Shown: one piece after another, positions 16,948-49,074 of the stretch | How positions within the stretch are numbered: position 1 is the stretch's first letter | How the letters are laid out: each line of letters starts with the position of its first letter | Virus record (IMG/VR): IMGVR_UViG_3300030085_004215 | Span: 1-64,000 of that record | Length of the DNA stretch: 64,000 nucleotides | Reading direction: 5' to 3' (one strand) | Source of the DNA: a virus | The notes under the pieces: model-generated | Told to the model about the DNA's origin: nothing | Seen by the model: the letters and a program-made list of their open reading frames with translations, nothing else | Databases searched by the model: none | Program-made: the position numbers and the translations under genes

Positions 16948-16974
16948 AGGGGGAGTCTATCCGAGGCTCCCCCT
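16948..16974. terminator. Probable bidirectional intrinsic terminator
   Basis: AGGGGGAGTCT-ATCCG-AGGCTCCCCCT hairpin between convergent genes. Confidence 0.55.
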
Positions 16975-17790
16975 TATCAAATCCACAGTTTTTTGAGCAT
17001 TGAATCTTCCAGCTTTTGGCCAACCGTTTACAGCACCATCACTTTCACCTGGAGTTTTAATCCAAAGGTATGCATCACAATAATCTGAATTGGTTTTAGT
17101 AGTGGGCAATGGTCCAAGTTTCATGTTTGGAGGATTAAATGTTTCATCTACCTCATTACCATTACGAGAGGTATCAATCACATAACTACATCCAATGTTA
17201 TTTGCAATATAATCACCATAATTTATACATTTATCTGTAGTTACAAAATTACTTGTATTAAGACTAAATCCTTTTATAGATTCATTCATAAATATATTTA
17301 AATAATCTACTGCTTCCATCTTTTTTAACCAATATGGATGACCAATATCAAGATAAATCAAAGCATTTGATTGAGTTAATATTTTTAGTGATTCTATTAT
17401 AAGATATTTTCTATCCCTAAAATCTTGTGTACTCATGTTACTCATATGAGGAATTGCATCAGGTTCAAAAATTACTAAGGGTTGATAATCACCTATACCG
17501 TCTGTAACATTTCTTATATATTTTAGATAATCGTTTGGGTGTAATCCACCTTTAGAATGTCCACCCACATCCCTACCAGTAATCGAATATAAAACAATGG
17601 TAGGTTGTGTAGGAAACGCATGTTTACATAATCTATGTATTCTTGATGATAATCTCTTTATTGGTTTTTTTATATTCTTTTCTACATACCAAACTGCGTG
17701 AGGTTGAGATGTAATATAACCAAGTTCAGGATAATTTATTATGTTATGTTTTCTATAATTCCACGAATGTTGAAATAGTATCAAAACCAA
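16957..17790 (-). CDS. Glycoside hydrolase family 6 (endoglucanase-like)
   Basis: GH6 motifs GRD, IFEPDA, YLDIGH..WL, GFSLNTSNF, YVIDTSRNG, DAYLWIKTPGESDG. Confidence 0.85.
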   Translation of the reverse strand: MVLILFQHSWNYRKHNIINYPELGYITSQPHAVWYVEKNIKKPIKRLSSRIHRLCKHAFPTQPTIVLYSITGRDVGGHSKGGLHPNDYLKYIRNVTDGIGDYQPLVIFEPDAIPHMSNMSTQDFRDRKYLIIESLKILTQSNALIYLDIGHPYWLKKMEAVDYLNIFMNESIKGFSLNTSNFVTTDKCINYGDYIANNIGCSYVIDTSRNGNEVDETFNPPNMKLGPLPTTKTNSDYCDAYLWIKTPGESDGAVNGWPKAGRFNAQKTVDLIRGSLG

Positions 17791-18500: not shown

Positions 18501-18751
18501 TATATATCCTTTTCTGTTATTTTTGTTAAATCATTTACGGTATCTTTGATACCCTCAAATACAGTACCGATTTCATCATCAGATTCGAACTTACCCTCTG
18601 AATCTAATTCATCGAGTATACTTTTAGTTTGTATTACTCTAGCAGAATATTCCTCAACCCAATCTTCTAATCTTTCTACTTTACGAAATAAATTAAAACT
18701 TGTATACATAAATGTTATTGTGGTTATTCCTAAAATTATTTCAATGACCAT
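18500..18751 (-). CDS. Small membrane-anchored protein
   Basis: N-terminal TM helix followed by a charged coil. Confidence 0.55.
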   Translation of the reverse strand: MVIEIILGITTITFMYTSFNLFRKVERLEDWVEEYSARVIQTKSILDELDSEGKFESDDEIGTVFEGIKDTVNDLTKITEKDI

Positions 18752-19524
18752 TATTTATCTCCAAATAGTTCAGTAAATAAATCTTTGGCATTTTCACCTC
18801 TAAGTTTAGTATCTACTTCAGTATTTACTGCTTTTTTAATATTAGTAACTGATTTAGCAACTCGTTTAGTTTCTTTTTTATCTCCACGAGTCCACTCATC
18901 TGCTTCTATAAAGGTTGCCATGACATCTGCTTGATGTAGAATACGAGCAATATTACTTCTAAGTGCAACCTCTTTGGAATATGTTTTTAAATACTTTTCA
19001 TTTGCTTGTTCATACAAACCATCTGTAAGTCTTAAACCAATATATTCATTTTCGGTCATTTTGATACCAAAATGTTGAAGTAACCAACATGCCCTATCCG
19101 TAACTGTCATGAATGTAGGTATAGGATTATGGTTATATATTTTACCTTGATTTTTTCTGTGCCAATCAGATTCATTAATTACATAATAATCATCTTCTAA
19201 ATCACCAACCTTACCTAAATCATGATGGAGTGCTGCAAAAATTAATTCCTCATCTGTAAAATTAATATCTGCACCATTTTGTTCCCATAATTTTTTTATT
19301 TGTTCTGAAAAATCAACAATATGTAATACATGCTCTACATAACCACCAACCATGGCATTATGATAATGTTCTCTACCACTTGCTGGTGCTACTACCATTC
19401 TATCCTCAAAATAATCATACATTGTATTTAACTTATCTAATCGTTCGCCTGAAAAGGTTTTACCGATTATATCTCTAAGTCTATTCCAATTATCTTGTAT
19501 TTGTTGTTCAGTAAGTTGTTTCAT
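18751..19524 (-). CDS. HD-domain phosphohydrolase
   Basis: APAS...HNA..GGYVEH, ALHHDLGK and LHQAD motifs. Confidence 0.8.
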   Translation of the reverse strand: MKQLTEQQIQDNWNRLRDIIGKTFSGERLDKLNTMYDYFEDRMVVAPASGREHYHNAMVGGYVEHVLHIVDFSEQIKKLWEQNGADINFTDEELIFAALHHDLGKVGDLEDDYYVINESDWHRKNQGKIYNHNPIPTFMTVTDRACWLLQHFGIKMTENEYIGLRLTDGLYEQANEKYLKTYSKEVALRSNIARILHQADVMATFIEADEWTRGDKKETKRVAKSVTNIKKAVNTEVDTKLRGENAKDLFTELFGDK

Positions 19525-19595: not shown

Positions 19596-20450
19596 TTATT
19601 TTTTTTCATTTATTGATTTTAGATAAGAACCACCGATATTCCAAAACAATGTCTTACCTTTTAATTTTTCTATATTCTGTTCTAACCAGTACCATTGTTT
19701 TTTATCCCAAAATTCATTACAATCAAATGGTACTTCATAATCATCCATCATATCATCAAATGCATAAGGTGATTTCTCAAGTATGATATTTTTTAAATCA
19801 CCCGCATGATTTTCATTTAAAATCTTTTTTGTTGATGAGAATGCACTCATCGTAATAGAGTAAACCTTTCGTGATACCGAATCCAACTTCCACCAATCAT
19901 CACCATACTCTAAAAATTCTTTTATCAATCCACTTGCAGTTACACCACTTCCGATACTCACTACAAGATTGTCATAATCCCTATCTTTTAATACTTCTTT
20001 CATCCTATCACCCATATAACTTATATATGCAGGATGATTAAACGCGTAAGGTAATTGTTGCCAACCATTTTCTTTTGCTTGAGTGTTTAGTTTGTTTTGC
20101 ATAAATGCCATCATATTAGGTCTCATGGGATGTAACTTACCACCATTACCCTCAACTCGTTCTAACAATATTTTTGGAAACCTATCAGTATTAGGATATG
20201 CAGAAATAAATTCTATATCATAGTCTTTACATAACTTACTTAATGTCCAACCTGTCCAACTACCATAAACTGATAAGTGTGTTAGTGGTTTTGATTTATC
20301 TATACTATCACTCTCTAAGATTTTTTTGATACCCTCAATCTTTGCCCATCGTGGAAATATATTACCATCTCCAACTAAATCATCTCTCTTGACATCAACA
20401 TCAATACCTTTAAGTGAATATGTTTCTACTGGTGTTTGTATTAAACCCAT
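19596..20450 (-). CDS. PLP-dependent enzyme, fold type II (ACC deaminase/D-cysteine desulfhydrase-like)
   Basis: TPVE...VKRDDL, AK (candidate Schiff-base Lys), VVSIGSGVTASG phosphate loop, LFWNIGG. Confidence 0.7.
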   Translation of the reverse strand: MGLIQTPVETYSLKGIDVDVKRDDLVGDGNIFPRWAKIEGIKKILESDSIDKSKPLTHLSVYGSWTGWTLSKLCKDYDIEFISAYPNTDRFPKILLERVEGNGGKLHPMRPNMMAFMQNKLNTQAKENGWQQLPYAFNHPAYISYMGDRMKEVLKDRDYDNLVVSIGSGVTASGLIKEFLEYGDDWWKLDSVSRKVYSITMSAFSSTKKILNENHAGDLKNIILEKSPYAFDDMMDDYEVPFDCNEFWDKKQWYWLEQNIEKLKGKTLFWNIGGSYLKSINEKK

Positions 20451-21964
20451 TTCCCAAATCCATTTTCAGTACCAGATAAGGTATCTCTCATACCCTTATG
20501 TTTAAAACCAAATATTCTTTCAAAGTTATCACCGATACAATGAAATAGTTTTTTTCTATTTCTAAAATTTATTTCTACATCATTTAAAATTACATCTTCA
20601 ATATACTCTTTGAAATTTGTTCCTTTCTGAAACGCTCTTTTCTCTTGGTCACATACCTCATCTGGTAAGTGTCCACGAAATGCTTCAGCAAGTGGTTTCT
20701 TCCATTGGTTTCCACTATTATCTAATACTGGTTGTGTAAGGTTAGTAGTGTAATCTAAAAAATCTAAATCAAAGAATGGACATCTTAATTCTATTGTTCC
20801 ATAATTCATAAAGATATTATTTCCGCGAAGTAAATTACCATAGTATTGTTTCTCAAATAATTTCTTTCGTACATCACTCCAATCTGGTTTCTTACTGAAC
20901 ATTCTGAATGTACCATATGAACCATACGATTCATCAGAACCCTCACCACTAAACGCAACCTTAACACCATCCTCTGCCATTCTCTCGGCAACATAACTTT
21001 GTAGAATACCAACTTCCATTTGGACTGTCGATGGATATTCTATAACCTTTATTGTTTCTAAAAATTTTCTTTTTAATTCTTCTGGGTCTCGTGGTATCTC
21101 TACCTCAACCAATGGTACATTGATATGTTCTGCAACCATTCTTGCAAACATTAAATCTCTTGAATCCTCATCAAACTTACAAGTGTATGAAACGATATCA
21201 GGTACTTTCTTACTTAACAAATAAGTAATCACACTTGAATCAATACCACCACTTAAACAAGTTGCAACCTTAACATCACTTAATAATCTTTTTTCTACAG
21301 CGTTATCTAATAACTCATATGTTTTTTTATTAACCTCATCTTGGTCAAACTCTTTATCTTCAAATGGTGTCCAAGTAAAATAATAATCTTCCTCAATATG
21401 TACTGAACCAGTAATTGTATTTATTTTAACTACTGAATTTTTTGGAACAAACTTACATTCTGCTTGTGGTAATATTTTTAATATTGATTTCATTTCTGAT
21501 GCAATCAAAATATTTGTATCATTGTTATAAATATATAATGGAATTTTACCAACCCAATCTCTTGATATAACTAATTCATTTGTTAATTCATCATGCAATA
21601 CAAAACTAAACATACCCTCTAATCTTTTTAATTCATTTTCTTTGTACAAATATAAAATTATTTCTGAATCACTATTACTAAAAAATGTATAACCTCGTTC
21701 TTCATATTCTTTTCTTAATTGTGGATAGTTCCAAATCTCACCATTAACAACAAGTGCATAATCATCAAATACAAATGGTTGGTTTCCTGCCTCACTTACA
21801 TCATTAATACTCAATCGATTATGTCCAAGATGTACATTACCACTTTCGTATATACCTCTATTATCTTTACCTCTATGTTCAATCTGTTGTAGCATATCAA
21901 CTACTACTTCATCACTATGATTGATAGTACTAACTATTCCACACACGAAGTAACTCCTTGACAT
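20441..21964 (-). CDS. asnB: Asparagine synthetase B-like glutamine amidotransferase
   Basis: CGI N-terminal nucleophile (true start probably the GTG just before it), HRG, LGHNRLSI, NGEIWN, SDSE, LSGGIDSS, SGEGSDE, ELRCPFFD. Confidence 0.85.
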   Translation of the reverse strand: MSRSYFVCGIVSTINHSDEVVVDMLQQIEHRGKDNRGIYESGNVHLGHNRLSINDVSEAGNQPFVFDDYALVVNGEIWNYPQLRKEYEERGYTFFSNSDSEIILYLYKENELKRLEGMFSFVLHDELTNELVISRDWVGKIPLYIYNNDTNILIASEMKSILKILPQAECKFVPKNSVVKINTITGSVHIEEDYYFTWTPFEDKEFDQDEVNKKTYELLDNAVEKRLLSDVKVATCLSGGIDSSVITYLLSKKVPDIVSYTCKFDEDSRDLMFARMVAEHINVPLVEVEIPRDPEELKRKFLETIKVIEYPSTVQMEVGILQSYVAERMAEDGVKVAFSGEGSDESYGSYGTFRMFSKKPDWSDVRKKLFEKQYYGNLLRGNNIFMNYGTIELRCPFFDLDFLDYTTNLTQPVLDNSGNQWKKPLAEAFRGHLPDEVCDQEKRAFQKGTNFKEYIEDVILNDVEINFRNRKKLFHCIGDNFERIFGFKHKGMRDTLSGTENGFGKWV

Positions 21965-22616
21965 TTTTCTTTTCGTTATTCATATCACCAAGATGAACTG
22001 AACCACCAATTGTTGTAACCCGTTTTAATTTTAAATCTGCTTGTTCACATAAGAACTTACCCATCTCACATAACGCCATCCAATCAGCATAACCACTTTT
22101 ACTAATTCTCATGCTACGAAAAAATGCAGTTAAATACAATCCCTCTTTACGAGGTTTCAAGTCAATTGATAATAAACAAGGCATTCCACTCATTGTTTTC
22201 CTACCATCTGATTTAGGGTCATAAATACTCATTGCAATTGTTTTACTATTCTTATGTTCTTTTAATCTCTTAATAGTTTGTTCTACTTGATTAAAACTAT
22301 TATCCCAATTAATCATTCTACCCCAATAAGTTTTGTTCCACTTTACTTTGGTATCATTTTGTTGAAATTGTAATTCATCCATAAATGGGTGTAGTTTTGG
22401 TTTTACAAATGTAACTGATGATGCATAATCTATCCTATCATCACCAAAGATATACCGAAAGGTAGAATCAAATTTTTTATCGATATCAAAGTTATCTTCT
22501 ATCTCTACGGACATATTAATACTTTCGTTCATCACATCTTTGTTACCATGTTCTAAAAGATACTCGTGTGATTTTATCCAAGCATCTGTCGGTGAATTTG
22601 CTTTAATTACTTTCAT
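21930..22616 (-). CDS. Thymidylate-synthase-fold nucleotide-modifying enzyme (dCMP-type)
   Basis: YWGRM, catalytic PC (MPCLL), FFRS; Asp (GYAD) at the position that is Asn in ThyA. Confidence 0.7.
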   Translation of the reverse strand: MKVIKANSPTDAWIKSHEYLLEHGNKDVMNESINMSVEIEDNFDIDKKFDSTFRYIFGDDRIDYASSVTFVKPKLHPFMDELQFQQNDTKVKWNKTYWGRMINWDNSFNQVEQTIKRLKEHKNSKTIAMSIYDPKSDGRKTMSGMPCLLSIDLKPRKEGLYLTAFFRSMRISKSGYADWMALCEMGKFLCEQADLKLKRVTTIGGSVHLGDMNNEKKNVKELLRVWNS

Positions 22617-24232
22617 TTCTTATGATACACAAATATAGGTTCGAATTTATACACATTATTATCATGTTCAACTGAATTTAATATTCCAGTCTTACTTGGG
22701 TCTAACCCAATCATTCTTGTCATTAACATTTTTAATTTACCTTTATATTCACATCCAAGTTCTTCTAATATTTTTCTACTATCACCCTCTAAATCATAAT
22801 AAGTATTTGCACCAATTTTGATACTAGCAATATTCCAAAGTATATATCTATCATCTTTAAGATACTCATATGCAGTTGTAAGAGTTGGTCTAAGAAAATT
22901 ATCAACCCAATCTTCATATTCTGAATATGCTTTAAAACTTTGATTCTCATCTTGTGAATATTGTTCACGATTAAAATACGGTGGTGAAGTAAACACCAAA
23001 TCTAATTTACCTTTATACTTTTGAAAATTTGGATTGTTACTTATTAATTCACTACCCTCTCTAAATACATCATATGTATTACTTTGCTTTTGTACTTCAA
23101 AAAATTGAGTAAATGTTTCAGAAAAATCATCTACACAATTTTCATTGTAAAAATTAGCAACTGCTTCATACCTACCAAAATTATCAGGATTAGGGTCGGT
23201 TCCTACATAATGTATTTTTTTACGAGAACTCATTGCTCCCAATATCCTACCACCCCAACCACTTGATGGGTCATATATATGAAATCTTTGGTCTTGATTT
23301 TCTATATGGTCTGTAAATTTTTCATATAGTAATTTTGCTGTAAGTGGTGGGAAGTTTACTGCAGGTTGTCCACATGCTAATCTAAATACTTGTAATATCT
23401 TTGGAAAAATTCCAACCGTTTTATCATAGTGTCTAATTAAATATAAAAATTTAGTTACTTTACCACTTTTACTTGTTTCTTCTGAAATTATATCTTCTAT
23501 GTTACTTAACATAGTATCATCTAATAACCCATTATCTTTACACTCTTGCACGTCTTTTGCAGTTAGGTATACATTACCATGGCCTTTGTATTCTTCATTC
23601 ATAGTACCATAGTTTCCGACTGTACTTTCCTTTACTCTTGCAAGTACAAATCTCACATCTTTATGTTTACCAATACAAACCTTACCATCATGGACATTCT
23701 TGATAAACTCTTTACCACTCTCTCCATTCCAAAATGGATTTTCATCTTTCTTGGTTACAATACTTCTTGACCATGAATACATGGAATCTCTTTTTACTGC
23801 CCTACGCATTATATGTACAAACTTTTCTTCCATGCTTGGGTCACCAAAATGGTCATAGATAGATAAACCATTATCAGCAGATTTACCAATACTGATTTTT
23901 GTTTTTAACATTGTTGGAAAAAACTGATTAACACCAGATGCATCTTTATTAAAATTCTTAATTATACCAAGTGATTCACTATCACCAGTATTATCCTCAA
24001 TCAAATAATCACAAGGATTACCTTTTAACTTTTTAAACTTTTTTATTAACCCATCTTCATCTTTACCAATGACAGGTGGTGTACCATAAACATCCCATTG
24101 TTCAGTAACTTCACTGCGAAGTAATCGTGCCCATTCTGTAAACTCGTCGGTAGACATTTGTAAAAGCTTATGATAGGTGGTGTTTGATTTAAACTCAGAG
24201 AATCGACTTCTCTCATAAAACCATTTTTTCAA
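22613..24232 (-). CDS. DNA amino-methyltransferase (N4-C/N6-A type)
   Basis: YDPSSGWGGR SAM-binding motif, YVGTDPN, DLVFTSPPYF catalytic motif. Confidence 0.8.
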   Translation of the reverse strand: MKKWFYERSRFSEFKSNTTYHKLLQMSTDEFTEWARLLRSEVTEQWDVYGTPPVIGKDEDGLIKKFKKLKGNPCDYLIEDNTGDSESLGIIKNFNKDASGVNQFFPTMLKTKISIGKSADNGLSIYDHFGDPSMEEKFVHIMRRAVKRDSMYSWSRSIVTKKDENPFWNGESGKEFIKNVHDGKVCIGKHKDVRFVLARVKESTVGNYGTMNEEYKGHGNVYLTAKDVQECKDNGLLDDTMLSNIEDIISEETSKSGKVTKFLYLIRHYDKTVGIFPKILQVFRLACGQPAVNFPPLTAKLLYEKFTDHIENQDQRFHIYDPSSGWGGRILGAMSSRKKIHYVGTDPNPDNFGRYEAVANFYNENCVDDFSETFTQFFEVQKQSNTYDVFREGSELISNNPNFQKYKGKLDLVFTSPPYFNREQYSQDENQSFKAYSEYEDWVDNFLRPTLTTAYEYLKDDRYILWNIASIKIGANTYYDLEGDSRKILEELGCEYKGKLKMLMTRMIGLDPSKTGILNSVEHDNNVYKFEPIFVYHKK

Positions 24233-24243
24233 ATATAACCTCT

Positions 24244-24762
24244 TTAATTTAAGTGTGTAACCAAATCCAAATTAGTTCTCATAATTTGAGCAGAATCAAA
24301 TCTATATGGTTTGGTTCCAGGCGTTTCTAAGATATCAATACGATTAACCCATCTTGGATTCATTGTATCTTTAACCTGATAAACACCGTCCTTTCCATTA
24401 GTTCCTTTTAACAAAATAAAATCGCCATAATCTAACCACCCACCCCATCGTGTCAAAAGGTTTCTACTAACCGCTATGAATCGGTACTCGCTAGCTTTGT
24501 GTACCCTTATGCGCGTTCCATCCGCGAGAATGTTCGGTGTAGAATCAGTTTGATACGGAACTGGGTGATACATTGTTACGGTAACTTCTAGTCCCTCAAG
24601 TTTATGTTCTGAAACTAACTTGTTAAGTCTATAGTTTTCCGATTTCAAATCATTCACATTATCCATGTAAAAACTTTGGTAATTGTCAAAAATAACTGTC
24701 CAAATGTACCCATTTGCAATAAGTACACTTAGAAACGATAAATATGTTTTCCAATGCTTCAT
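24244..24762 (-). CDS. Membrane-anchored 3D-domain (lytic transglycosylase-like) protein
   Basis: VTVTMY...TDSTP...ADG, IAVSR, VKDTM, RIDI. The track start at 24879 lies inside the tmRNA, so the start is probably 24762 or 24795. Confidence 0.65.
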   Translation of the reverse strand: MKHWKTYLSFLSVLIANGYIWTVIFDNYQSFYMDNVNDLKSENYRLNKLVSEHKLEGLEVTVTMYHPVPYQTDSTPNILADGTRIRVHKASEYRFIAVSRNLLTRWGGWLDYGDFILLKGTNGKDGVYQVKDTMNPRWVNRIDILETPGTKPYRFDSAQIMRTNLDLVTHLN

Positions 24763-24845
24763 AATAGTATTATAAAGTACTTCATTCACACTCATAAATA
24801 AATATCTCCATTTCTTTTTAAAATACAACATTTTTTTATTTTTTG

Positions 24846-25248
24846 TGGAGCTGGGGGGATTCGAACCCCCGTCCTGCATATATTTTATAAATAGTCATTC
24901 ACAGCTTAGTTTGGTTCCAAATCGGTAGTCACCAACAACCCACCATGTCTCACTTTACTCAGAGTGGTTTAACTGATGAAATTTTATACTCTATCACACG
25001 AGTGGATGTCTAACTTATTTTATGACCGAGTGTTAGACAACTCAGTATCTTAAGCCGCGTAGGCGTAAGATGGTTGGGAATCACCGATTGGTAATTCTGA
25101 GTAATCATACTCAGTCAAATGCCAATCTATCACCAACCCGTCTAGCGATTGTTCGCCAATTGAGTTTCGTTGAGTTTTATTTAAGAGTCTACTCAAACTC
25201 TGCTGCACTAACTTACAAAACGATACCAGTCGATTTCCAGTCAGCCCC
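24846..25248 (-). ncRNA. ssrA: tmRNA (transfer-messenger RNA)
   Basis: 5' GGGGCTGACTGGAAATCGAC and 3' GGACGGGGGTTCGAATCCCCCCAGCTCCA form an Ala acceptor stem with G3-U70; internal tag frame ends YAYAA-TAA at 25050-25052; CCA not encoded. Confidence 0.93.
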
Positions 25249-26584: not shown

Positions 26585-27565
26585 TTATAAATATGCTCTT
26601 GGTGATGGTAAATCACTATAGTGGTCTTTGAAGTGAATTGATTTATATTTATCAACAGCCAATTCCTTGTGTTTTGCCTCTACCATAATATCTACATCAT
26701 TACCATAAGTATTAATGAAATCATAAACATAATCAGAATGTGCTTGTGGTCTTATCTTATCATCTTCTTGTTCAATACTCCTACTCTCAGAGTAATGAAC
26801 AACTGGCACAATACCCTTAGGCCATGTAGACATAGCCATCTCCAATGCTTCTTGTTCTGATAAATCACCAGTACAAAATTTGTGATGATGATAATCGAAT
26901 ACAATAGGTACACCAACTTTTTTGTATATACCCTCATATAAATCTTTTACACTATACATAGAGGCTTTATCATCATTTTCTAATGTCAATCTACTACTAA
27001 CACTTTCTGGTAACTTGTAAAAATTCTTACAGAATCTATCCATGGCAGATTCTTTATCTCCATACACACCACCAAGATGAATGTTAATCTTGTTGTATGG
27101 TGTTCTTGATAATCCCATCATATCCATAACATCACCATGTATTGTTAAGTCCTTTACACAATTATCAACAACATGGTCGTGTGGTGATACCAATACATTG
27201 AATGGGCCTGGATGCGTTGTTAATCTAAGTTTATGTGTGTTTGCCATAATACCTGCTGAACGGAGATATGTTTTTATCTCATCGATATCTTTCATATCAT
27301 CCCATTCATATTCGGTTTTCCACGGTACAATATCACTACTCATTCGATAAAACTCATATCCATTTAAGATATTCCACTGTACGATTGAGTTCAAATCTTT
27401 TACATTTTGAAGTGTTAGTTCACTAGCGTAATCAACACCCTTCTCATCAAATGTTCTGCGAATCATACTACGATTTGTAGTGATTGGTTTTGTGCCTTTT
27501 GGTTTATCACCATACTTTGTTGGATAACTAAGTTTCATACTAATACATGCGTAACCTAAATTCAT
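26585..27565 (-). CDS. uvsE: UV-damage endonuclease (UvsE/UVDE)
   Basis: LGYACI, FYRMSSD, HPGPF, LENDD, VFDYHHH, HYSE, AHSDY, DIMVEAKHKELA. Confidence 0.92.
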   Translation of the reverse strand: MNLGYACISMKLSYPTKYGDKPKGTKPITTNRSMIRRTFDEKGVDYASELTLQNVKDLNSIVQWNILNGYEFYRMSSDIVPWKTEYEWDDMKDIDEIKTYLRSAGIMANTHKLRLTTHPGPFNVLVSPHDHVVDNCVKDLTIHGDVMDMMGLSRTPYNKINIHLGGVYGDKESAMDRFCKNFYKLPESVSSRLTLENDDKASMYSVKDLYEGIYKKVGVPIVFDYHHHKFCTGDLSEQEALEMAMSTWPKGIVPVVHYSESRSIEQEDDKIRPQAHSDYVYDFINTYGNDVDIMVEAKHKELAVDKYKSIHFKDHYSDLPSPRAYL

Positions 27566-37906: not shown

Positions 37907-39064
37907 TTAGCTGACCGAATCTGTATCTGCTTCGTTAAACAAATCGTCAGAAGAACCATCAGAAATATATTTCTGAACTAATTGTTTTACAAAAGTTCTC
38001 TCGGAATCAATCCCACCTTCATCAGCAAATTGAGGATAGATACTAACCTCTGCAGCTTCATCAAGTCCAAAACCATCATAAATTAAACCAGTCATTTCAA
38101 CTGATGTTCTTGTAGATACACCATTTGAAACTTTACCAGTATCAGATTTGGATTCCATACGAGTAGTATGAGCAATTTCTGAAACTGCTTTTAGTAAATC
38201 TGGTTCTACATTAGGAAACATATAACTTAGTAAACCTAATTCTTGCTCATCATCAAGAACATCCATCTCAACGATAGTGAATCTATCCATAAGAGCTTTA
38301 TCCATAACACGAGTAGAAGTATACTCGTTACCAATGTTAGCAGTTGCTACAAAGGTAACACCCTCAGCGACTGGGATAGTTTCCTGTCCACTAGCCTCAT
38401 CAAGCCTTAGGTATCTTTGACCTTGGTCAAGAACTGTCATCAAAATATTCCAAGCATCTGGATGAGCTCTTGATAACTCATCAAGAAGAATCACAGCGTT
38501 AGGTGTTTGAATAGCCTTTACAAAAAGTGATTCTGAAAAGTAAGTACCTTTCTTCTTATCAAAGTGAACATTACCAATCAAGGTAGCTCTTGGGTCTTGA
38601 GTAGAACCCATATTGAAATAAAAGTCAGGCCTATCAAGAGAATTAACCAATGATTTAGAAGCCATGGTTTTACCACAACCAGCCGGGCCAGTCATCAAAA
38701 TATTCTTACCACGAACAGCAGAACGGATAAGGTACTTCCACTTAAGTTCACTCATAACCAAACCTTTAGGTTTTAGGTTATATGAAGAGTGAATAAAATT
38801 TAAGATTTCAGCGTGTTCACTTGGAACCTCAACTGAAGATAAATCAATTGTAGGAGCCGAAGTTTTTTCGAACTCACTCATTGGTACAACCCACCAATAG
38901 GTTTTACCAGATTTATTAACTCTCTGTTCAAGAGCCATACCCTTTTCAAAAGCTCGTTTACGAGCTGATATTGAAATTGATGAGGTATGTTTGTTTCCAT
39001 CGGCATCCCATGCGTTGAAACGATTACCAGATTTTTCTACTTTTACGATTAGTGATTTATTCAT
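37907..39064 (-). CDS. MoxR/CbbQ/CobS-like AAA+ ATPase
   Basis: GPAGCGKT, ILLDELSRA, FVATAN, ALMDRF, STR. Confidence 0.88.
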   Translation of the reverse strand: MNKSLIVKVEKSGNRFNAWDADGNKHTSSISISARKRAFEKGMALEQRVNKSGKTYWWVVPMSEFEKTSAPTIDLSSVEVPSEHAEILNFIHSSYNLKPKGLVMSELKWKYLIRSAVRGKNILMTGPAGCGKTMASKSLVNSLDRPDFYFNMGSTQDPRATLIGNVHFDKKKGTYFSESLFVKAIQTPNAVILLDELSRAHPDAWNILMTVLDQGQRYLRLDEASGQETIPVAEGVTFVATANIGNEYTSTRVMDKALMDRFTIVEMDVLDDEQELGLLSYMFPNVEPDLLKAVSEIAHTTRMESKSDTGKVSNGVSTRTSVEMTGLIYDGFGLDEAAEVSIYPQFADEGGIDSERTFVKQLVQKYISDGSSDDLFNEADTDSVS

Positions 39065-40618: not shown

Positions 40619-42703
40619 TCACTTTTCCAAGAACTTTTTGTTCATTGTTTTAGCAACTTGTAAAACATTTTGAACATCAATATATTGAGCATCATTACCA
40701 TACATTTTCTTAAAGTTTGATTTCTCGCTATCAGAACTGTAGCTTGAATCACTAACAAAGTAAGATAAAACCTTAACACCCATTTTACGAATAGCTTTAA
40801 CTTGTTTGTTAGTATGAATTAATGCCTGGCCATGATTGTAACTAATTTCATTGTTATTAAACATTGGCATTCCATCTGAAAAATTTAAGAAGTATGAATC
40901 ACGATTTCTTGATGTAGGAACAATATCTTTCAGTATTGCTTCAAAACATAAACCTTCTGGTGTTGTTCCGCCAGGGTGAATATTTTTAAACATATTTCTA
41001 ACTTTCATAAAACTATCAGTACGAGAATCATAACCAATTAAAATTAAAGGAAGCGTATCTGAATTTCTACCATAACTACGATTTGTATTGTGAGTACTTC
41101 TAAAACTAACAACCACATCCACATTTGAAATCATGTCAACTGCCTTACAAATAGCAACAACTGATACCATTGTATTGAACCATTTATCCCCACCCATAGA
41201 ACCACTAGCATCAACTGAGATATGTAAGAACGCATCTGAATAAGATTCAACAAATGTTTGTTGAAAAACTCTATCATTACCAAAACCTAATTCAGCAATT
41301 AATCTCTTATCAATACGACCAGAATCTAATCTGTTCCATTTTAAATCACGAGATTCTCCACGAACTTGTAACTTACGACCTAACTTACTACCAAGTTTAA
41401 CACCCTTAATAATAGCATCTTCATAACCTCTTGTCCAAGTAGTTAGTACTGATGGGAACATATTTTCATCAATCATAGTTTGAGTAAGTTTTTTTACATA
41501 GATACAAGCAACACCTTTACCTGCAACATATCTACCTTGTTTATTATCCCAAACTTCACCAACACCCTCACCTGTATTAACTTTTTCAACACCAGCTTCT
41601 TCCATAGTTTTAACAATTTGATTATCTTTTTTAGTGAGAGTACCTTGTTTTTTAGTATCACCATTTACAAAATCTTTTTGTTTTGAAAATTGTTTACTAA
41701 GTTGTCTTTTTTGATTATTAGTAAGTTCTTCAACCTTACCTGGAATTTGTTCACCATCTTCATTACCACCCTCAGAACCTTCACCAGAACCCTCAAGTTG
41801 TGGATTATCACCAGTAACAGGTTGATTTTTTGTATCACCGAATTCATCAGTAACCTCTTTACCATCAGCCAAACAATCAAGAATAAGTTTGTATACTTGA
41901 GTTGCAACTTTATATGCTTCTTCAGTAGAATTCATTTTCTTGATATTACTAAAAATTAGTCTGTATATTTTATCAAGACCAGGTAGTACATCTAATCTAC
42001 GATTTTCATTAGTTAGATTTAAGATTCTGAAAATGTATGAATCCCAATCTAAATCAGTATACTCATTTGTTTTAAGTGCTTTATCAACAACTTTAGAGTG
42101 AAAATACTTATCATACATTGAATGATAATAACCTTTATAACCAGGTGAATTTGAGAACACATAATAATCAATTCTTCTATCTTCTACATAGTTCAATAAA
42201 TTTTTAAGATGTCCAAGAATATCAAATCTATCAAAACCTTTCTTCTCACCTAATACAAAAAGTTCTTCAGGTGTATTTTGTTCAAGATTTCTTAAGAAAT
42301 CAAAATCTGAAAGTTTAATATGAGAACCCTCATGAAGTGCTAACCCAACAACTGGGTCAAAGTTTTTCTCATCAATCTTGGAACCTATAACAACTGTTTT
42401 ACCATCTGTATATGAATCACCACGAGTTTGAAATTTAACATTTATATCAGAACGACTTGTTACAATAGTAACAAAGTTAGATATTGCTCTACGATAAGAT
42501 GCCAATTGTACATGGTCAGCACCTTTCTTGACTGGTTCATCATCAATGAACTCACTTCTACGAGTATCCCACTCAGTATCAGCCCAAAAAGAACTGAAAG
42601 GGTTTGTATTTTTAGATAGGTTTTTAGCACTATATTTTTCACGAAGTGCCATTGGGTTAAAATGTTTTAGTTTTGAATCCATTATTTTTTCCTTATTTTT
42701 CAT
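40619..42703 (-). CDS. CobT-like protein: N-terminal metallopeptidase-like domain plus C-terminal VWA domain
   Basis: HEGSH and NYVEDRRI; SGRID; MIDAS DASGSM, GTTPE, FSDG. Likely partner of the AAA+ ATPase. The SD-led start is probably the second Met. Confidence 0.8.
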   Translation of the reverse strand: MKNKEKIMDSKLKHFNPMALREKYSAKNLSKNTNPFSSFWADTEWDTRRSEFIDDEPVKKGADHVQLASYRRAISNFVTIVTSRSDINVKFQTRGDSYTDGKTVVIGSKIDEKNFDPVVGLALHEGSHIKLSDFDFLRNLEQNTPEELFVLGEKKGFDRFDILGHLKNLLNYVEDRRIDYYVFSNSPGYKGYYHSMYDKYFHSKVVDKALKTNEYTDLDWDSYIFRILNLTNENRRLDVLPGLDKIYRLIFSNIKKMNSTEEAYKVATQVYKLILDCLADGKEVTDEFGDTKNQPVTGDNPQLEGSGEGSEGGNEDGEQIPGKVEELTNNQKRQLSKQFSKQKDFVNGDTKKQGTLTKKDNQIVKTMEEAGVEKVNTGEGVGEVWDNKQGRYVAGKGVACIYVKKLTQTMIDENMFPSVLTTWTRGYEDAIIKGVKLGSKLGRKLQVRGESRDLKWNRLDSGRIDKRLIAELGFGNDRVFQQTFVESYSDAFLHISVDASGSMGGDKWFNTMVSVVAICKAVDMISNVDVVVSFRSTHNTNRSYGRNSDTLPLILIGYDSRTDSFMKVRNMFKNIHPGGTTPEGLCFEAILKDIVPTSRNRDSYFLNFSDGMPMFNNNEISYNHGQALIHTNKQVKAIRKMGVKVLSYFVSDSSYSSDSEKSNFKKMYGNDAQYIDVQNVLQVAKTMNKKFLEK

Positions 42704-47550: not shown

Positions 47551-49074
47551 TTATAAAACTTTAATTCCATATCGTTTTTCAAATCCAATACCATCATTAT
47601 GGGTATTCACAATTGGCATACCCTTTATATTAAGTGAGGTATTGAGTAACATCGGGCAACCTGTCTTCTTGTAAAATTCATTAATGAGATTATAAAAGTT
47701 CGGGTTATCATCCTTACTAACAGTCTGTACTCGTGATGTGTTATCAACATGACATATAGCAGGATATAAATCAGGTTGTTTACATTTAGCAACGAACTGC
47801 ATATACTGAGACTTCCTAACTGGCATATCGAATATTTCGTGTGCGTGTTCCTCAAGTACTGCAGGTGCAAAAGGTCTGAACTCCTGTCGTTTCTTAATCT
47901 TATTAACTCTATCTTTGATATCATCACCACGCGGGTCTGCCAACAAAGAACGATTACCTAACGCTCGAGGACCAAACTCCGCTCGACCACTCGCCACACC
48001 AACGATATCACCTTTAAGAAGCTTTTTCAAAGTTTGCTTAATTGGATATTCTCCTTGTATATCATAACCCAAGAAAGTATTCTTCCAATCGAGATGTTTA
48101 CCCAATACATATGCAGCACATCCCAACGATGAACCACCATCACCGGGATTTGGAATAATCCATATATTGGGATATCTTCTCGCCAATAAGGAATTCGCTA
48201 CACAATTTAATGCAACTCCACCACCATATACAAAGTTATCTATATTGGGTAACATGGATTGTGCTAACTCAAATACTTTAAGTATCTCTTCTTCACATAT
48301 TGCTTGTACATTTGCTGCTATATCAAACTTCCACTTATCACTTCCATCATCTGGATAACACTTAGGATTCCAATCCATACATCCTCGGTGTAGGTTTTGT
48401 TTAAACTCTACAATACCCTCATTGAAGAATTCATCGCGTATCTCTTTTTGTAATGTGGTATCTAATGTTCCCCATCCTGCCATACCCATAAGTATGTATT
48501 CATCTTCTTGAGGTTTTAAACCCAACCTCTGTGTCATAGCACTATACCATAACCCTAATGAATGTGGATATTGACGATTCCACAACTTTTTAAATTGGGT
48601 TTCCCCATTGTGGTTTGTTCTGATATGCCATATAGTGGTGGTATCCCATTCTCCTATTGCATCAATCATCACACCAATACTCTCTCTATAGGGAGAGGTA
48701 AAATATGCTGCACTCGCGTGTGATAAATGATGAGATATGTAATGGTTGGGTTTAAGATTAAATTGTTTTAAATACTTACTTGGTAGGTTCTGAAGAGTAA
48801 AGGTATCTTGAGTTTGACCTGCCCATAGTTGTCGTGATTTCTTTAACCAAGGCTGTTCAAACCACACGACTGTATCCCAATCCCCATAACGGCGTAATTG
48901 AGATAGTAGTTGTGGATTTAATAACTCATCATTTTTTATTTCTGAGTTTCGTTCACTATGGCCTGCAAACCTTATATCGGTATCGTGTATAAGTGCAGCA
49001 GTAGCATCATGATTTAAACCAGTTAATCCAAGTATTCTTTTGTTTTGATTGGGTTTGGTTATGTAACATTTCAT
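47551..49074 (-). CDS. Carbamoyltransferase (NodU/CmcH family)
   Basis: HDATAA, HHLSHA, DAIGE, EYILMGMA, GGVALNC, GDGGSSLG, EFGPRALGNRSLL, FRPFAP, HVDNTSRVQTV, LNTSLN. Confidence 0.93.
   Translation of the reverse strand: MKCYITKPNQNKRILGLTGLNHDATAALIHDTDIRFAGHSERNSEIKNDELLNPQLLSQLRRYGDWDTVVWFEQPWLKKSRQLWAGQTQDTFTLQNLPSKYLKQFNLKPNHYISHHLSHASAAYFTSPYRESIGVMIDAIGEWDTTTIWHIRTNHNGETQFKKLWNRQYPHSLGLWYSAMTQRLGLKPQEDEYILMGMAGWGTLDTTLQKEIRDEFFNEGIVEFKQNLHRGCMDWNPKCYPDDGSDKWKFDIAANVQAICEEEILKVFELAQSMLPNIDNFVYGGGVALNCVANSLLARRYPNIWIIPNPGDGGSSLGCAAYVLGKHLDWKNTFLGYDIQGEYPIKQTLKKLLKGDIVGVASGRAEFGPRALGNRSLLADPRGDDIKDRVNKIKKRQEFRPFAPAVLEEHAHEIFDMPVRKSQYMQFVAKCKQPDLYPAICHVDNTSRVQTVSKDDNPNFYNLINEFYKKTGCPMLLNTSLNIKGMPIVNTHNDGIGFEKRYGIKVL

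Follow-up and report, generated by a model that had tools for sequence, protein, structure and literature searches.

Hypermodification of thymidine in Pseudomonas phage M6 and Salmonella phage ViI was reportedly described by Lee et al. in 2018. The available text of a later study of these phages (Lee et al. 2021, PMC8989533) places tailoring on DNA, where the M6 PLP enzyme gp52, for which residue K36 is named, decarboxylates C-alpha-glycinyl-thymine. For cytosine, the accessible sections of Yang et al. (2025, PMC12783734) describe CmoA, CmoX and CmoY of Synechococcus phage S-B43, which are associated with 5-carboxymethylcytosine and its glycine amide. CmoY, an asparagine-synthetase homologue, forms amides in an ATP-dependent manner on the cytosine-borne carboxylate in DNA, joining glycine to 5-carboxymethylcytosine; CmoX is a C5-methyltransferase homologue with an SPPC motif that is found beside CmoY, with CmoA; and a sister cluster bearing a GATase domain is predicted to use ammonia. 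Relatives of thymidylate synthase (TS) act on dCMP in other phages. The available portions of Lee et al. (2026, PMC13326640) present HY126 AfhB (PDB 9iqu, 9iqc), RB69 gp48 and DLP3 gp80 as flavin-dependent 5-hydroxy-dCMP synthases, with hydroxymethylases carrying Asp at position 169, hydroxylases Asn (D169N), and both an acidic residue at the Leu143 position (L143E in hydroxylases). In the accessible part of the MetaGPA study (PMC8670742), Asp177-type TS homologues such as T4 gp42 supply modified dCMP, and pyrophosphohydrolases are linked with Asp177 TS homologues in cytosine-modified contigs.

The locus compared here with these systems comes from an uncultured large phage (IMG/VR record IMGVR_UViG_3300030085_004215), and the window, that is the whole stretch of DNA analysed, comprises positions 1-64,000 of that record. 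Four ORFs on the minus strand follow one another in the order MT-like protein, TS relative, AsnB-like amidotransferase and PLP enzyme (Table 1), with overlaps of 4, 35 and 10 nt as listed. A preliminary description had reported four overlapping genes at this site, and the ORF coordinates and family matches show that they are real. It appears reasonably probable that these genes constitute a mobile phage cassette for DNA hypermodification, with cytosine as the likeliest target and a route unlike every published one; all assignments of function rest on homology at 21-31% identity.

Table 1. Features of the window considered in the text, with the matches on which each assignment is based.
Feature	Coordinates	Strand	Basis
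HD-type phosphohydrolase, putative nucleotide-pool enzyme	18751..19524	-	phrog_28876 E 2.8e-11
Fold-type-II-like PLP enzyme, 284 aa, M6 gp52 homologue	19596..20450	-	phrog_7093, BLASTP
AsnB/CmoY-type glutamine-hydrolysing amidotransferase (putative)	20441..21946	-	PF00733, GATase_7, TIGR01536; ORF listed from ATG 21964 (20441-21964, 507 aa)
Short thymidylate-synthase relative, 228 aa	21930..22616	-	PF00303 29.6 bits, model, alignments
MT-like protein, long paralogue, 539 aa	22613..24232	-	PF01555, motifs I and IV, model
MazG-like NTP pyrophosphohydrolase ORF, 96 aa	29002..29292	-	PF03819 27 bits (cut-off 22)
NodU/TobZ-type carbamoyltransferase, 507 aa	47551..49074	-	phrog_1601 E 1.4e-100

Conservation of the arrangement was assessed in locus sets gathered by conserved peptide patterns, so that locus totals are lower bounds. 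The TS-anchored set held at least 84 loci, of which 77 had the TS gene whole and 46 had at least 4 kb on both sides; it was reduced to 16 clusters at 90% identity with one representative each. Within 8 kb of the anchor, an MT-like gene was present in 16/16 clusters, an AsnB-type gene in 15 (10 encoding a GATase domain and 5 of the short form), a PLP gene in 13 and a radical SAM gene in 3. The 16 PLP-anchored clusters, which have contigs in common with the first set and are not independent of it, contained MT and AsnB-type genes without exception and the TS relative in 12. In most lineages the TS, AsnB and PLP genes are contiguous and overlapping, frequently with translational coupling. Their surroundings vary by lineage: the cassette lies between T4-type gp44 and gp62 in L015 and L016, adjoins RNR, PolB, DnaB and RecA in jumbo contigs, and adjoins the HD protein and a GH6-family gene in the window. 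The cassette stays together in many unrelated phages and is probably mobile, and the synteny counts place the gene arrangement far beyond chance. The neighbourhood survey that the preliminary description had proposed found the genes syntenic in relatives, in both the TS-anchored and the PLP-anchored clusters, and homology and synteny support the four genes as a conserved functional module.

The TS relative scored above the PF00303 cut-off of 24.3 bits and was modelled with a TS fold (pLDDT 92.6). Its signature consists of P146-C147 (MPC), RSMR at 167-170 and D178, with R170 at the position of ThyA Asp169, G144 at that of Leu143 and D178 at that of Asn177. P146-C147, R167-S168 and D178 are invariant across a 25-sequence alignment of the family, whose members carry Arg or Ala at position 170 and Gly or Lys at that of Leu143. 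The preliminary description had read the same residues (catalytic PC and RS kept, RSMR for RSxD, Asp for Asn177), as the translation confirms, and homology bears out a cytosine-type Asp together with loss of the folate-binding Asp. D178 is the 12th residue counted ungapped from the RS motif, as is N177 in E. coli ThyA. In ungapped alignments it falls opposite the Asp of MilA and of 9iqu (HMMER) and, in the methanogen-type TS of virus PhiF1 (RSHD...N; hhalign), opposite the Asn. When hhalign was given E. coli ThyA as a single sequence, a 3-residue gap put N177 opposite G175 (probability 86.6%), which leaves the position ambiguous in that alignment.

AfhB (9iqu) was the top match of the TS relative in sequence-profile and in structural comparisons alike. 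In VIA comparisons of the model, 9iqu scored Z 20.2 (rmsd 2.7, 198 residues aligned), MilA Z 19.4 and classical TS at most Z 17.7 (L. casei TS, Z 17.7); the profile E values were 3.2e-8 for AfhB and 5.2e-8 for MilA. Like AfhB, the cassette protein is a short TS-fold enzyme that keeps the catalytic Cys and has Asp for Asn177, but it differs from the AfhB/RB69 gp48 class in having Arg/Ala for the diagnostic D169N and Gly/Lys for L143E, and the ORFs scanned beside the cassette in the window and sister loci included none for the transfer of arabinose or other glycosyl groups. Three further classes were considered. ThyA, which converts dUMP to dTMP, shares the Cys and Arg/Ser, but the cassette protein reads RSMR...D for RSxD...N; methanogen-type TS (TIGR03283) gave 81.6 bits, below the cut-off of 174.55, and its PhiF1 member reads RSHD...N; and T4 gp42-type dCMP hydroxymethylase shares Asp at 177, but the family lacks the folate Asp (Arg/Ala for Asp169), has Gly/Lys at the Leu143 position, and gave no significant hhalign alignment with T4 gp42 (probability 0.9%). 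At the two positions that define the product, the TS relative fits none of the tested classes. Ten records at least 90% complete hold it, and a canonical dTMP synthase is also present in 8 of them (Asn177/RSxD ThyA in 5, ThyX in 3); no other TS or ThyX was found in the phage's own 120-kb contig, which is estimated to be 66% complete. The separate ThyA/ThyX, the invariant D178 where methanogen-type TS and the M6 dUMP hydroxymethylase have Asn, and a dCMP hydroxylase as the nearest structure indicate that the TS relative is not the dTMP synthase.

For the AsnB-like gene the likeliest start is GTG 21946, 7 nt past the Shine-Dalgarno sequence AAGGAG, rather than ATG 21964. This start would give Met-Cys-Gly-Ile and 501 aa, the length of most relatives, and would leave the gene overlapping the TS gene by only 17 nt. 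So read, the protein has the features of AsnB, namely an N-terminal Cys nucleophile, a class II GATase domain (GATase_7, E 6.5e-34) and a PP-loop SGGIDS (PF00733, E 1.9e-42). It passed TIGR01536 (296.2 vs 267.1 bits), over profile positions 1-383 of 517 only, but not the AsnB model NF006949 (265.2 bits, below 499). It aligned over its full length with gp124 of Streptomyces phage TurkishDelight, a GATase-bearing protein (31% identity, E 7e-74), and its residues 233-479 aligned with S-B43 CmoY 19-260 (E 2e-7); the short GATase-less AsnB variants of sister loci share the CmoY architecture. Homology therefore supports placing the AsnB-like amidotransferase of the preliminary description closest to phage amide ligases and amidotransferases of the CmoY kind, predicted to act on modified cytosine in DNA. 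A CmoY-type amide-ligase system as such was rejected: CmoA was found in 0/27 cassette records and not in the phage's own contig, and the MT family gave an hhalign probability of 0.2% with both TurkishDelight methyltransferases, so that no CmoX of the C5-methyltransferase type was present. CmoY systems differ in turn by having neither TS relative nor PLP enzyme, neither being mentioned in the available text of PMC12783734.

On another reading, the cassette is a set of four unrelated auxiliary genes adjacent by chance, with the names that public annotations use: thymidylate synthase, asparagine synthetase, threonine dehydratase and orphan DNA methylase. The TIGR01536 result and the single TS gene of the 120-kb contig are consistent with such names, but the synteny persists across lineages and contexts, most near-complete genomes carry a second, canonical dTMP synthase, the TS relative lacks both Asn177 and Asp169, and the AsnB-like protein fails NF006949 and aligns throughout with a phage CmoY-type protein, all of which makes a chance assembly highly improbable.

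The PLP enzyme had no match in Pfam or NCBIfam and matched phrog_7093, 'threonine dehydratase', with E 5.5e-24. BLASTP aligned its residues 6-273 with M6 gp52 (28% identity, E 5e-26), and its predicted PLP lysine, K37, is kept in 13/13 sequences, opposite K36 of gp52. The M6-type PLP link made in the preliminary description thus holds, and the alignments show genuine, full-length homology to gp52, the hypermodification decarboxylase of M6, whose class also includes ViI gp226. With tblastn, 65 phage records were matched, 52 of them Pseudomonas phages; among the matches listed were M6 and YuA, and homologues in cultured phages were annotated there as threonine dehydratase, PLP-dependent enzyme or hypothetical. 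The likeness to M6 and ViI extends to the use of a TS-family enzyme in the nucleotide pool followed by later tailoring (on DNA in M6 and ViI), and some variant loci also hold a radical SAM enzyme, as M6 does, from a family with no BLASTP similarity to M6 gp53. The occurrence of PLP-enzyme homologues in M6, YuA and other, mostly Pseudomonas, phages would suit a thymine or uracil target, with new tailoring enzymes acting in a pathway based on 5-hydroxymethyl-dUMP. However, D178 is invariant, and dUMP enzymes, including the M6 dUMP hydroxymethylase gp58 by sequence comparison, have Asn at this pyrimidine-choice position. Nor was a 5-hmdU DNA kinase, aGPT-Pplase2 or the M6 radical-SAM isomerase (gp53) found in the phage's own contig at E up to 1 (chance matches, E ≥0.78) or in the 84 TS-anchored loci at E up to 1e-3; in place of kinase, transferase and isomerase, the cassette has SPPY-type MT-like proteins and an AsnB-type amidotransferase. 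A thymine or uracil target is accordingly quite improbable.

The MT-like protein is folded as a class I SAM methyltransferase. Its motif I reads D321-x-S-x-G-W-G-x-R and its motif IV F-T-S-P-P-Y-F (416-420), and S416-P-P-Y419 and D321/G325/G327 are invariant in 20/20 sequences. SPPY is a motif typical for methyltransferases that act on exocyclic amines. Together with motif I and a PF01555 score of 33.5 bits (cut-off 26.7), obtained over profile positions 2-106 of 221 in the C-terminal part only, it agrees with the N6/N4 amino-DNA methyltransferases, and the Atlas neighbours are viral N6_N4 MTase clusters throughout. The first ~280 residues correspond to no known fold, and the model is confident from about residue 300 onward only. 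N4/N6 methylation had been cast as a side activity in the preliminary description; this does not agree with the MT-like protein being the most constant partner (16/16 clusters from either anchor) and occurring as 1 to 6 paralogues.

In structure, the MT domain comes closest to tRNA m2G methyltransferases (VIA: TrmN Z 16.3, Trm11 Z 15.8; generic MTases 13-15), which makes RNA or another base a possible substrate. Genes for two tRNAs and a tmRNA lie in the window, and MilA, which makes hydroxymethyl-CMP for an antibiotic, nearly equals AfhB as a match to the TS relative; the products might then be modified RNA, such as the phage tRNAs or tmRNA, or a free modified nucleotide or nucleoside. Against this, other phages hold the cassette inside DNA replication and nucleotide-metabolism modules, and DNA is the substrate of gp52 and CmoY, the two homologues whose activity was tested, in the available text of PMC8989533 and PMC12783734. 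An RNA or free-nucleotide product is for these reasons considered improbable.

The likeliest product of the cassette is a cytosine in viral DNA that bears an amine or amide and has not been described chemically. As its fold and residues suggest, the TS relative would take dCMP from the pool, with Cys147 attacking C6, and install a hydroxyl, hydroxymethyl or other handle at C5, not a methyl group for dTMP; flavin-dependent 5-hydroxy-dCMP synthesis by close TS relatives means that one-carbon transfer to C5 is not the sole option. After replication, the SPPY-motif SAM enzymes may act on the base in DNA, by N-methylation or, more boldly, by transfer of an amino-acid-bearing alkyl group from SAM. 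By homology, the CmoY-like AsnB protein would adenylate a side-chain carboxylate and amidate it with ammonia from glutamine, and the gp52-like PLP enzyme would decarboxylate or otherwise trim a free alpha-amino-acid moiety borne by the base. These steps would yield a base with an amine, an amide or both, able to block host nucleases. Points against this scheme are the residues of the TS relative at the two product-defining positions, the likeness of the MT domain to tRNA methyltransferases, and the fact that, with only a single amino-acid group present, amidation and decarboxylation would have to share its one carboxylate. The preliminary description had likewise proposed an amino-acid-derived or amidated group on a pyrimidine, through a gene combination it did not recognise. 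That proposal is partly supported: its conserved module, cytosine-type Asp and homologies stand, and the combination is matched by no published pathway because the M6-type kinase, the M6-type transferase and CmoA are all absent; the side role given to methylation and the link to the HD hydrolase are not supported.

The constant core of the cassette is MT, AsnB and PLP, and the TS relative is a frequent front end. In G027, a genome estimated to be complete, MT, PLP and AsnB genes are present and the TS relative is absent; it is thus dispensable for the core, and the target need not be C5-modified cytosine. This genome and the 4 of 16 PLP-anchored clusters without a TS relative would also fit two systems, in which the TS relative, with MazG and here the carbamoyltransferase, serves replacement of cytosine by a 5-hydroxymethyl- or 5-hydroxy-derived form, like systems already known, and MT, AsnB and PLP carry out an independent DNA modification, for example at adenine N6 or cytosine N4, as the SPPY motif might suggest. 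The window has a carbamoyltransferase as well as a MazG-like pyrophosphohydrolase ORF, a combination that the accessible part of PMC8670742 links with 5-carbamoyloxymethylcytosine. The carbamoyltransferase is, however, 25 kb away in the window and Carbam_trans_N occurs in only 5/27 cassette-bearing records (3/11 near-complete ones), and the TS, AsnB and PLP genes are contiguous and overlapping in most lineages and often translationally coupled. Two separate systems are therefore judged unlikely, and a single cytosine-directed cassette is preferred. Within such a cassette the MazG-like ORF could possibly clear dCTP, should it belong to the system, and the carbamoyltransferase, not a constant partner, is a possible second user of hydroxylated cytosine.

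The HD protein, which the preliminary description had linked to nucleotide pools, showed no similarity to the HD protein gp59 of M6, and its Pfam HD score of 16.9 bits is below the cut-off of 22. Its family is present in 20/85 clustered sources (84 loci and the window), as expected of a lineage-specific neighbour only. The closest baseplate-wedge gene in the window lies ~6 kb past the 3′ end of the cassette.

Four minus-strand ORFs with mutual overlaps of 4, 35 and 10 nt make up the cassette, and ORF calls together with family matches confirmed the four overlapping, coupled genes claimed in the preliminary description. The 120-kb record whose first 64 kb constitute the window is estimated to be 66% complete; the window has a G+C content of ~32%, and its minus strand carries nearly all genes. 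In the window the cassette lies beside an HD protein and a GH6-family gene, and the nearest baseplate-wedge gene lies ~6 kb past its 3′ end. Promoter-like sites in a promoter and terminator scan were not in excess over shuffled sequence (36 against a shuffle mean of 45.5). When the cassette region and 25 kb of the window were searched as DNA against cultured phages, the most that emerged was a single 156-nt match with Flavobacterium phages, within the HD gene. Immediately upstream of the cassette is a tmRNA gene into which the 5′ end of a 211-aa ORF extends, so the true start of this ORF is probably further downstream.

Features of the window, of the whole record (G000) and of related IMG/VR loci (L numbers)
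Feature	Sequence	Position	Strand	Description
Cassette	window	19596-24232	-	four ORFs
MT-like gene	window		-	first in transcription; 539 aa; C-terminal part PF01555 N6_N4_Mtase, 33.5 bits (cut-off 26.7)
TS relative	window		-	second; 228 aa; PF00303, 29.6 bits (cut-off 24.3)
Amidotransferase	window		-	third; 507-aa ORF; class II glutamine amidotransferase and asparagine synthase domains
PLP enzyme	window		-	fourth; 284 aa; PHROG 7093 'threonine dehydratase', E 5.5e-24; no Pfam or NCBIfam match
tmRNA gene	window	24843-25248	-	full-length; tag peptide GDSQPSYAYAA (ARAGORN); Rfam RF00023, 88.3 bits (gathering score 47)
211-aa ORF	window	24244-24879		5′ end overlapped by tmRNA
Glycoside hydrolase family 6 (cellulase-type) domain protein	window	16957-17790	-	PF01341, E 3.4e-37; kept in close relatives, identity about 61-63%
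UvdE-type UV damage endonuclease	window	26585-27565	-	PF03851, E 6.2e-63
AAA ATPase and large partner protein	window	37907-39064 and 40619-42703	-	match phrog_249 'porphyrin biosynthesis' and phrog_5298 'cobalamin biosynthesis protein'
NodU/TobZ-type carbamoyltransferase	window	47551-49074	-	phrog_1601, E 1.4e-100
Further MT-like paralogues	G000, outside window	99120-101504		one intact, 406 aa, E 4.6e-121 (family HMM)
Second paralogue, apparently split	G000	99120-99731 and 99784-100305		two ORFs
Six MT-like paralogues	L024	18-11587		around TS / short AsnB-type / PLP trio; 376-kb jumbo phage contig
Radical SAM fusion	L077	4486-6891		801 aa; radical SAM domain and N6_N4 methylase domain
TS/AsnB-type joined ORF	L078	8001-10133		single 710-aa ORF; TS relative joined to AsnB-type from residue 21 on
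TS-less cassette	L153	6545-16119		gp45, gp44, MT-like, PLP, 70-aa ORF, D-2-hydroxyacid dehydrogenase-like, MT-like, phrog_2558/ParB-like, AsnB-type, two classical PF01555 methylases

The TS relative scored highest with the TIGR03283-type (methanogen-type TS) model, at 81.6 bits against a far higher cut-off of 174.55. Among 5.8 billion proteins 123 relatives were found, all of metagenome origin and many on contigs of 40-240 kb; the sole homologue in cultured phages was an archaeal-virus TS (21% identity), and T4 gp42 gave no significant alignment with the family. Ten residues (P146, C147, R167, S168, K173, G175, Y176, D178, S206 and H208) are invariant across 25 aligned sequences, and these include the catalytic PC and RS and the Asp at the Asn177 place of ThyA that had been described from the window protein. 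Counted ungapped from Arg-Ser, D178 occupies the place of E. coli ThyA Asn177. HMMER pairs it, without gaps, with the Asp found in both MilA and PDB 9iqu, and hhalign pairs it with the Asn found in the M6 dUMP hydroxymethylase and in the TS of virus PhiF1, which is of the methanogen type (RSHD...N). The hhalign run against the single E. coli ThyA sequence introduced a gap of 3 residues, leaving that alignment ambiguous at this place. The reading of RSMR instead of RSxD also held, with Arg at the folate-binding Asp169 place in the window protein and Arg or Ala in the family, and the Leu143 place is Gly or Lys. A confident AlphaFold model (pLDDT 92.6) had as its top structural match the phage HY126 dCMP hydroxylase AfhB (9iqu; Z 20.2, rmsd 2.7 over 198 aligned residues, 21% identity), followed by MilA (Z 19.4), with classical TS at 17.7 or below. 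According to the passages of Lee et al. (2026, PMC13326640) that deal with these residues, 5-hydroxy-dCMP synthases combine N177D and L143E with a diagnostic D169N, and hydroxymethylases retain Asp169 and are acidic at position 143. Compared with the synthases as characterized in those passages, the window family has N177D but neither D169N nor L143E. Judged by these residues, the TS relative is a cytosine-type enzyme with a third active-site signature (Asp177 with Arg/Ala169), joining a family in which each known signature stands for a different chemistry.

The TS relative is not the phage's thymidylate synthase. Searches covered 27 whole cassette-bearing records, 11 of them estimated to be at least 90% complete, and ten of these near-complete genomes carry the short TS relative. 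A full-length second TS was present in five of the ten, all reading RSxD...FN, the normal ThyA signature; ThyX was present in three, one had only a 72-aa TS fragment with a stop, and the one closest to the window (G003) had neither a second TS nor ThyX. In the window's own 120-kb contig, estimated to be 66% complete, no second TS, ThyX or dCMP deaminase was found.

A tblastn search with the PLP enzyme against 50,697 phage records matched 65, 52 of them from Pseudomonas and nine from Bordetella phages, with M6 and YuA among the 40 matches listed; a PDB sequence search gave no match. M6 gp52 aligns over nearly the whole length (28% identity, E 5e-26). Lys37, invariant in 13 of 13 aligned sequences, is the partner of gp52 Lys36, the likely PLP lysine of an enzyme that, in the sections of Lee et al. 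(2021, PMC8989533) devoted to it, turns Cα-glycinyl-thymine in DNA into 5-aminoethyl-uracil by decarboxylation. Although the PLP enzyme is common to both systems, no homologue of the M6 aGPT-Pplase2 (gp51), radical SAM protein (gp53) or kinase (gp54) was found in the 120-kb contig (E up to 1, chance-level matches only) or in the 84 TS-relative loci (E up to 1e-3). The HD protein of the window is unrelated to M6 gp59, and the radical SAM family associated with the cassette is unrelated to gp53 by BLASTP; both were rejected as counterparts.

The start of the amidotransferase is most likely the GTG at 21946, 7 nt past AAGGAG, giving Met-Cys-Gly-Ile; this amidotransferase class requires an N-terminal cysteine, and relatives are mostly 501 aa long, in agreement with this start. 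The protein lies above the cut-off of the general asparagine-synthase model TIGR01536 (296 versus 267 bits), with a match confined to the first three quarters of the profile, and below that of the AsnB model (265 versus 499 bits). Its best cultured-phage match, gp124 of Streptomyces phage TurkishDelight (31% identity, Met-Cys start to end, E 7e-74), is encoded between two methyltransferase genes with ParB-like genes adjoining; the cassette MT family, in contrast, is unrelated to either of these methyltransferases. CmoY of Synechococcus phage S-B43 aligned over its whole length with the synthetase domain of the window's amidotransferase (22% identity, E 2e-7). In the portions of Yang et al. (2025, PMC12783734) concerned with it, CmoY is an asparagine-synthetase homologue that joins glycine to 5-carboxymethylcytosine in DNA, and for a sister cluster with a glutamine-hydrolysing domain ammonia addition is predicted only. 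TurkishDelight gp124 may be A0A7T0Q3R0 of that study, the corresponding portions of which do not give the phage name. The cassette thus shares a CmoY-like enzyme with the CmoA/CmoX/CmoY system but differs from it in CmoA, which was found in none of the 27 cassette records nor in the window's own contig.

Twenty aligned MT-like proteins have, invariant or nearly so, D-x-S-x-G-W-G-x-R (motif I), D-P-N, F-T-S-P-P-Y-F, E-R-Y, Q-S-W and N-I. The structural model was confident only in the C-terminal 240 residues and poor in the N-terminal half. Foldseek returned only generic class I methyltransferases, and VIA-align placed the tRNA m2G enzymes TrmN (Z 16.3) and Trm11 (Z 15.8) at the top, with a lead over many others of only 1-3 units. 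All Atlas neighbours are viral N6_N4 methylase clusters, and a PDB search with the family profile gave one weak match (2zie, E 0.28). Up to six MT-like genes surround the cassette in other phages.

The gene-neighbourhood survey named in the preliminary description found co-occurrence. IMG/VR pattern scans gave 84 TS-relative loci, and 79 PLP loci from the best 80 of 159 confirmed relatives; ORFs were called and scored with HMMs built from our own alignments. Only loci with a complete anchor gene and at least 4 kb on both sides were retained, and one representative was kept per 90%-identity cluster. From the 84 TS loci, 77 had a whole anchor and 46 at least 4 kb on both sides, forming 16 clusters; within 8 kb, MT-like genes occurred in all 16, AsnB-type in 15 (10 long, 5 short without GATase), PLP in 13 and radical SAM in three. 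The PLP loci (74 of 79 with a whole anchor, 34 with at least 4 kb on both sides) also formed 16 clusters, with MT-like (within 8 kb) and AsnB-type genes in all and TS in 12; the two anchor sets have contigs in common and do not count as independent. Among large uncultured phages from aquatic sources the cassette is widespread, with contigs of up to 376 kb and T4-like genomes, and its surroundings vary from lineage to lineage: the T4-type clamp-loader genes gp44 and gp62 flank it in two loci (L015 and L016), and RNR, PolB, DnaB, FEN and RecA in jumbo contigs. The radical SAM fusion of L077, on a contig that also carries a TS relative and a short AsnB-type gene, suggests that radical SAM and MT-like proteins cooperate. 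The joined ORF of L078, which lacks the AsnB N-terminal Cys, may be either a genuine fusion or an artefact of assembly or frameshift. T4-like contigs carry a TS-less form of the cassette with a 2-hydroxyacid dehydrogenase-like gene in the TS place. The record of one such locus (L153), T4-like and estimated complete, had no TS-family profile match, the same search having found one copy in each of four control genomes. The possibility that its 348-aa gene encodes an overlooked TS was rejected (hhalign probability 0.1%); the matches of this gene are phrog_2558 and a weakly scoring ParB-like family.

The MT-like, AsnB-type and gp52-like PLP genes form the constant core of the cassette, which usually has the cytosine-type TS relative as a front end. 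Since the core includes two enzymes whose homologues have been shown to tailor side chains of DNA pyrimidines, and the module lies in replication and nucleotide-metabolism regions, the cassette is most likely a DNA hypermodification module with cytosine as the target. With both the kinase/aGPT-Pplase and the CmoA/CmoX routes absent, some other enzyme would have to install the carboxylate- or amino-acid-bearing handle, for which the MT-like proteins are the obvious candidates. Amidation and decarboxylation are incompatible on one carboxylate, which calls for two acid groups, alternative steps or another role for the PLP enzyme. A bolder proposal, which we consider rather unlikely, is that the SPPY-type proteins move the amino-carboxypropyl group of SAM (or a related carboxy-alkyl group), that the TS relative makes a novel C5 group and that the product is a doubly modified cytosine. 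The TS relative, with Arg/Ala in place of the folate/flavin-class residue and its water-gate position occupied by a small one, would then add a C5 group made by neither hydroxymethylases nor hydroxylases. Such alkyl transfer would account for the constant company of a CmoY-like amidotransferase and a gp52-like decarboxylase, and would make a kinase or aGPT-Pplase unnecessary. If true, the SPPY-type proteins would not be methylases but the first DNA enzymes to move the SAM amino-carboxypropyl onto a base, and an amine/amide-bearing, doubly modified cytosine would be a chemical type new to DNA.

The proposed cytosine hypermodification module, by whichever route, combines parts of three published pathways without their handle-installing enzymes, so that at least one new side-chain attachment, and probably also a new base, still awaits discovery. 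Which restriction, CRISPR and glycosylase defences are effective against a phage is determined by its DNA hypermodifications, and such modifications have been a source of enzymes for epigenetic sequencing and DNA labelling. The earlier remark that this gene combination is not known from any characterized pathway was borne out by full-text literature searching, which found no description of it and whose reach ends short of supplementary contig maps; excerpts of PMC8989533 mention only that amidoligase and glutaminotransferase genes, which go unnamed, occur close to clusters of the kinase/aGPT-Pplase kind.

The window also contains a MazG-like ORF and a carbamoyltransferase, enzyme kinds that the relevant section of PMC8670742 ties by MetaGPA to Asp177 TS homologues and 5-carbamoyloxymethylcytosine. 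The carbamoyltransferase is present in only five of the 27 cassette records and three of the 11 near-complete ones. Enzymes of the NodU/TobZ-type class carbamoylate 5-hydroxymethylcytosine in phage DNA. Three jumbo genomes have the carbamoyltransferase gene at a distance of 4-5 kb from the gene for an ordinary Asn177 ThyA.
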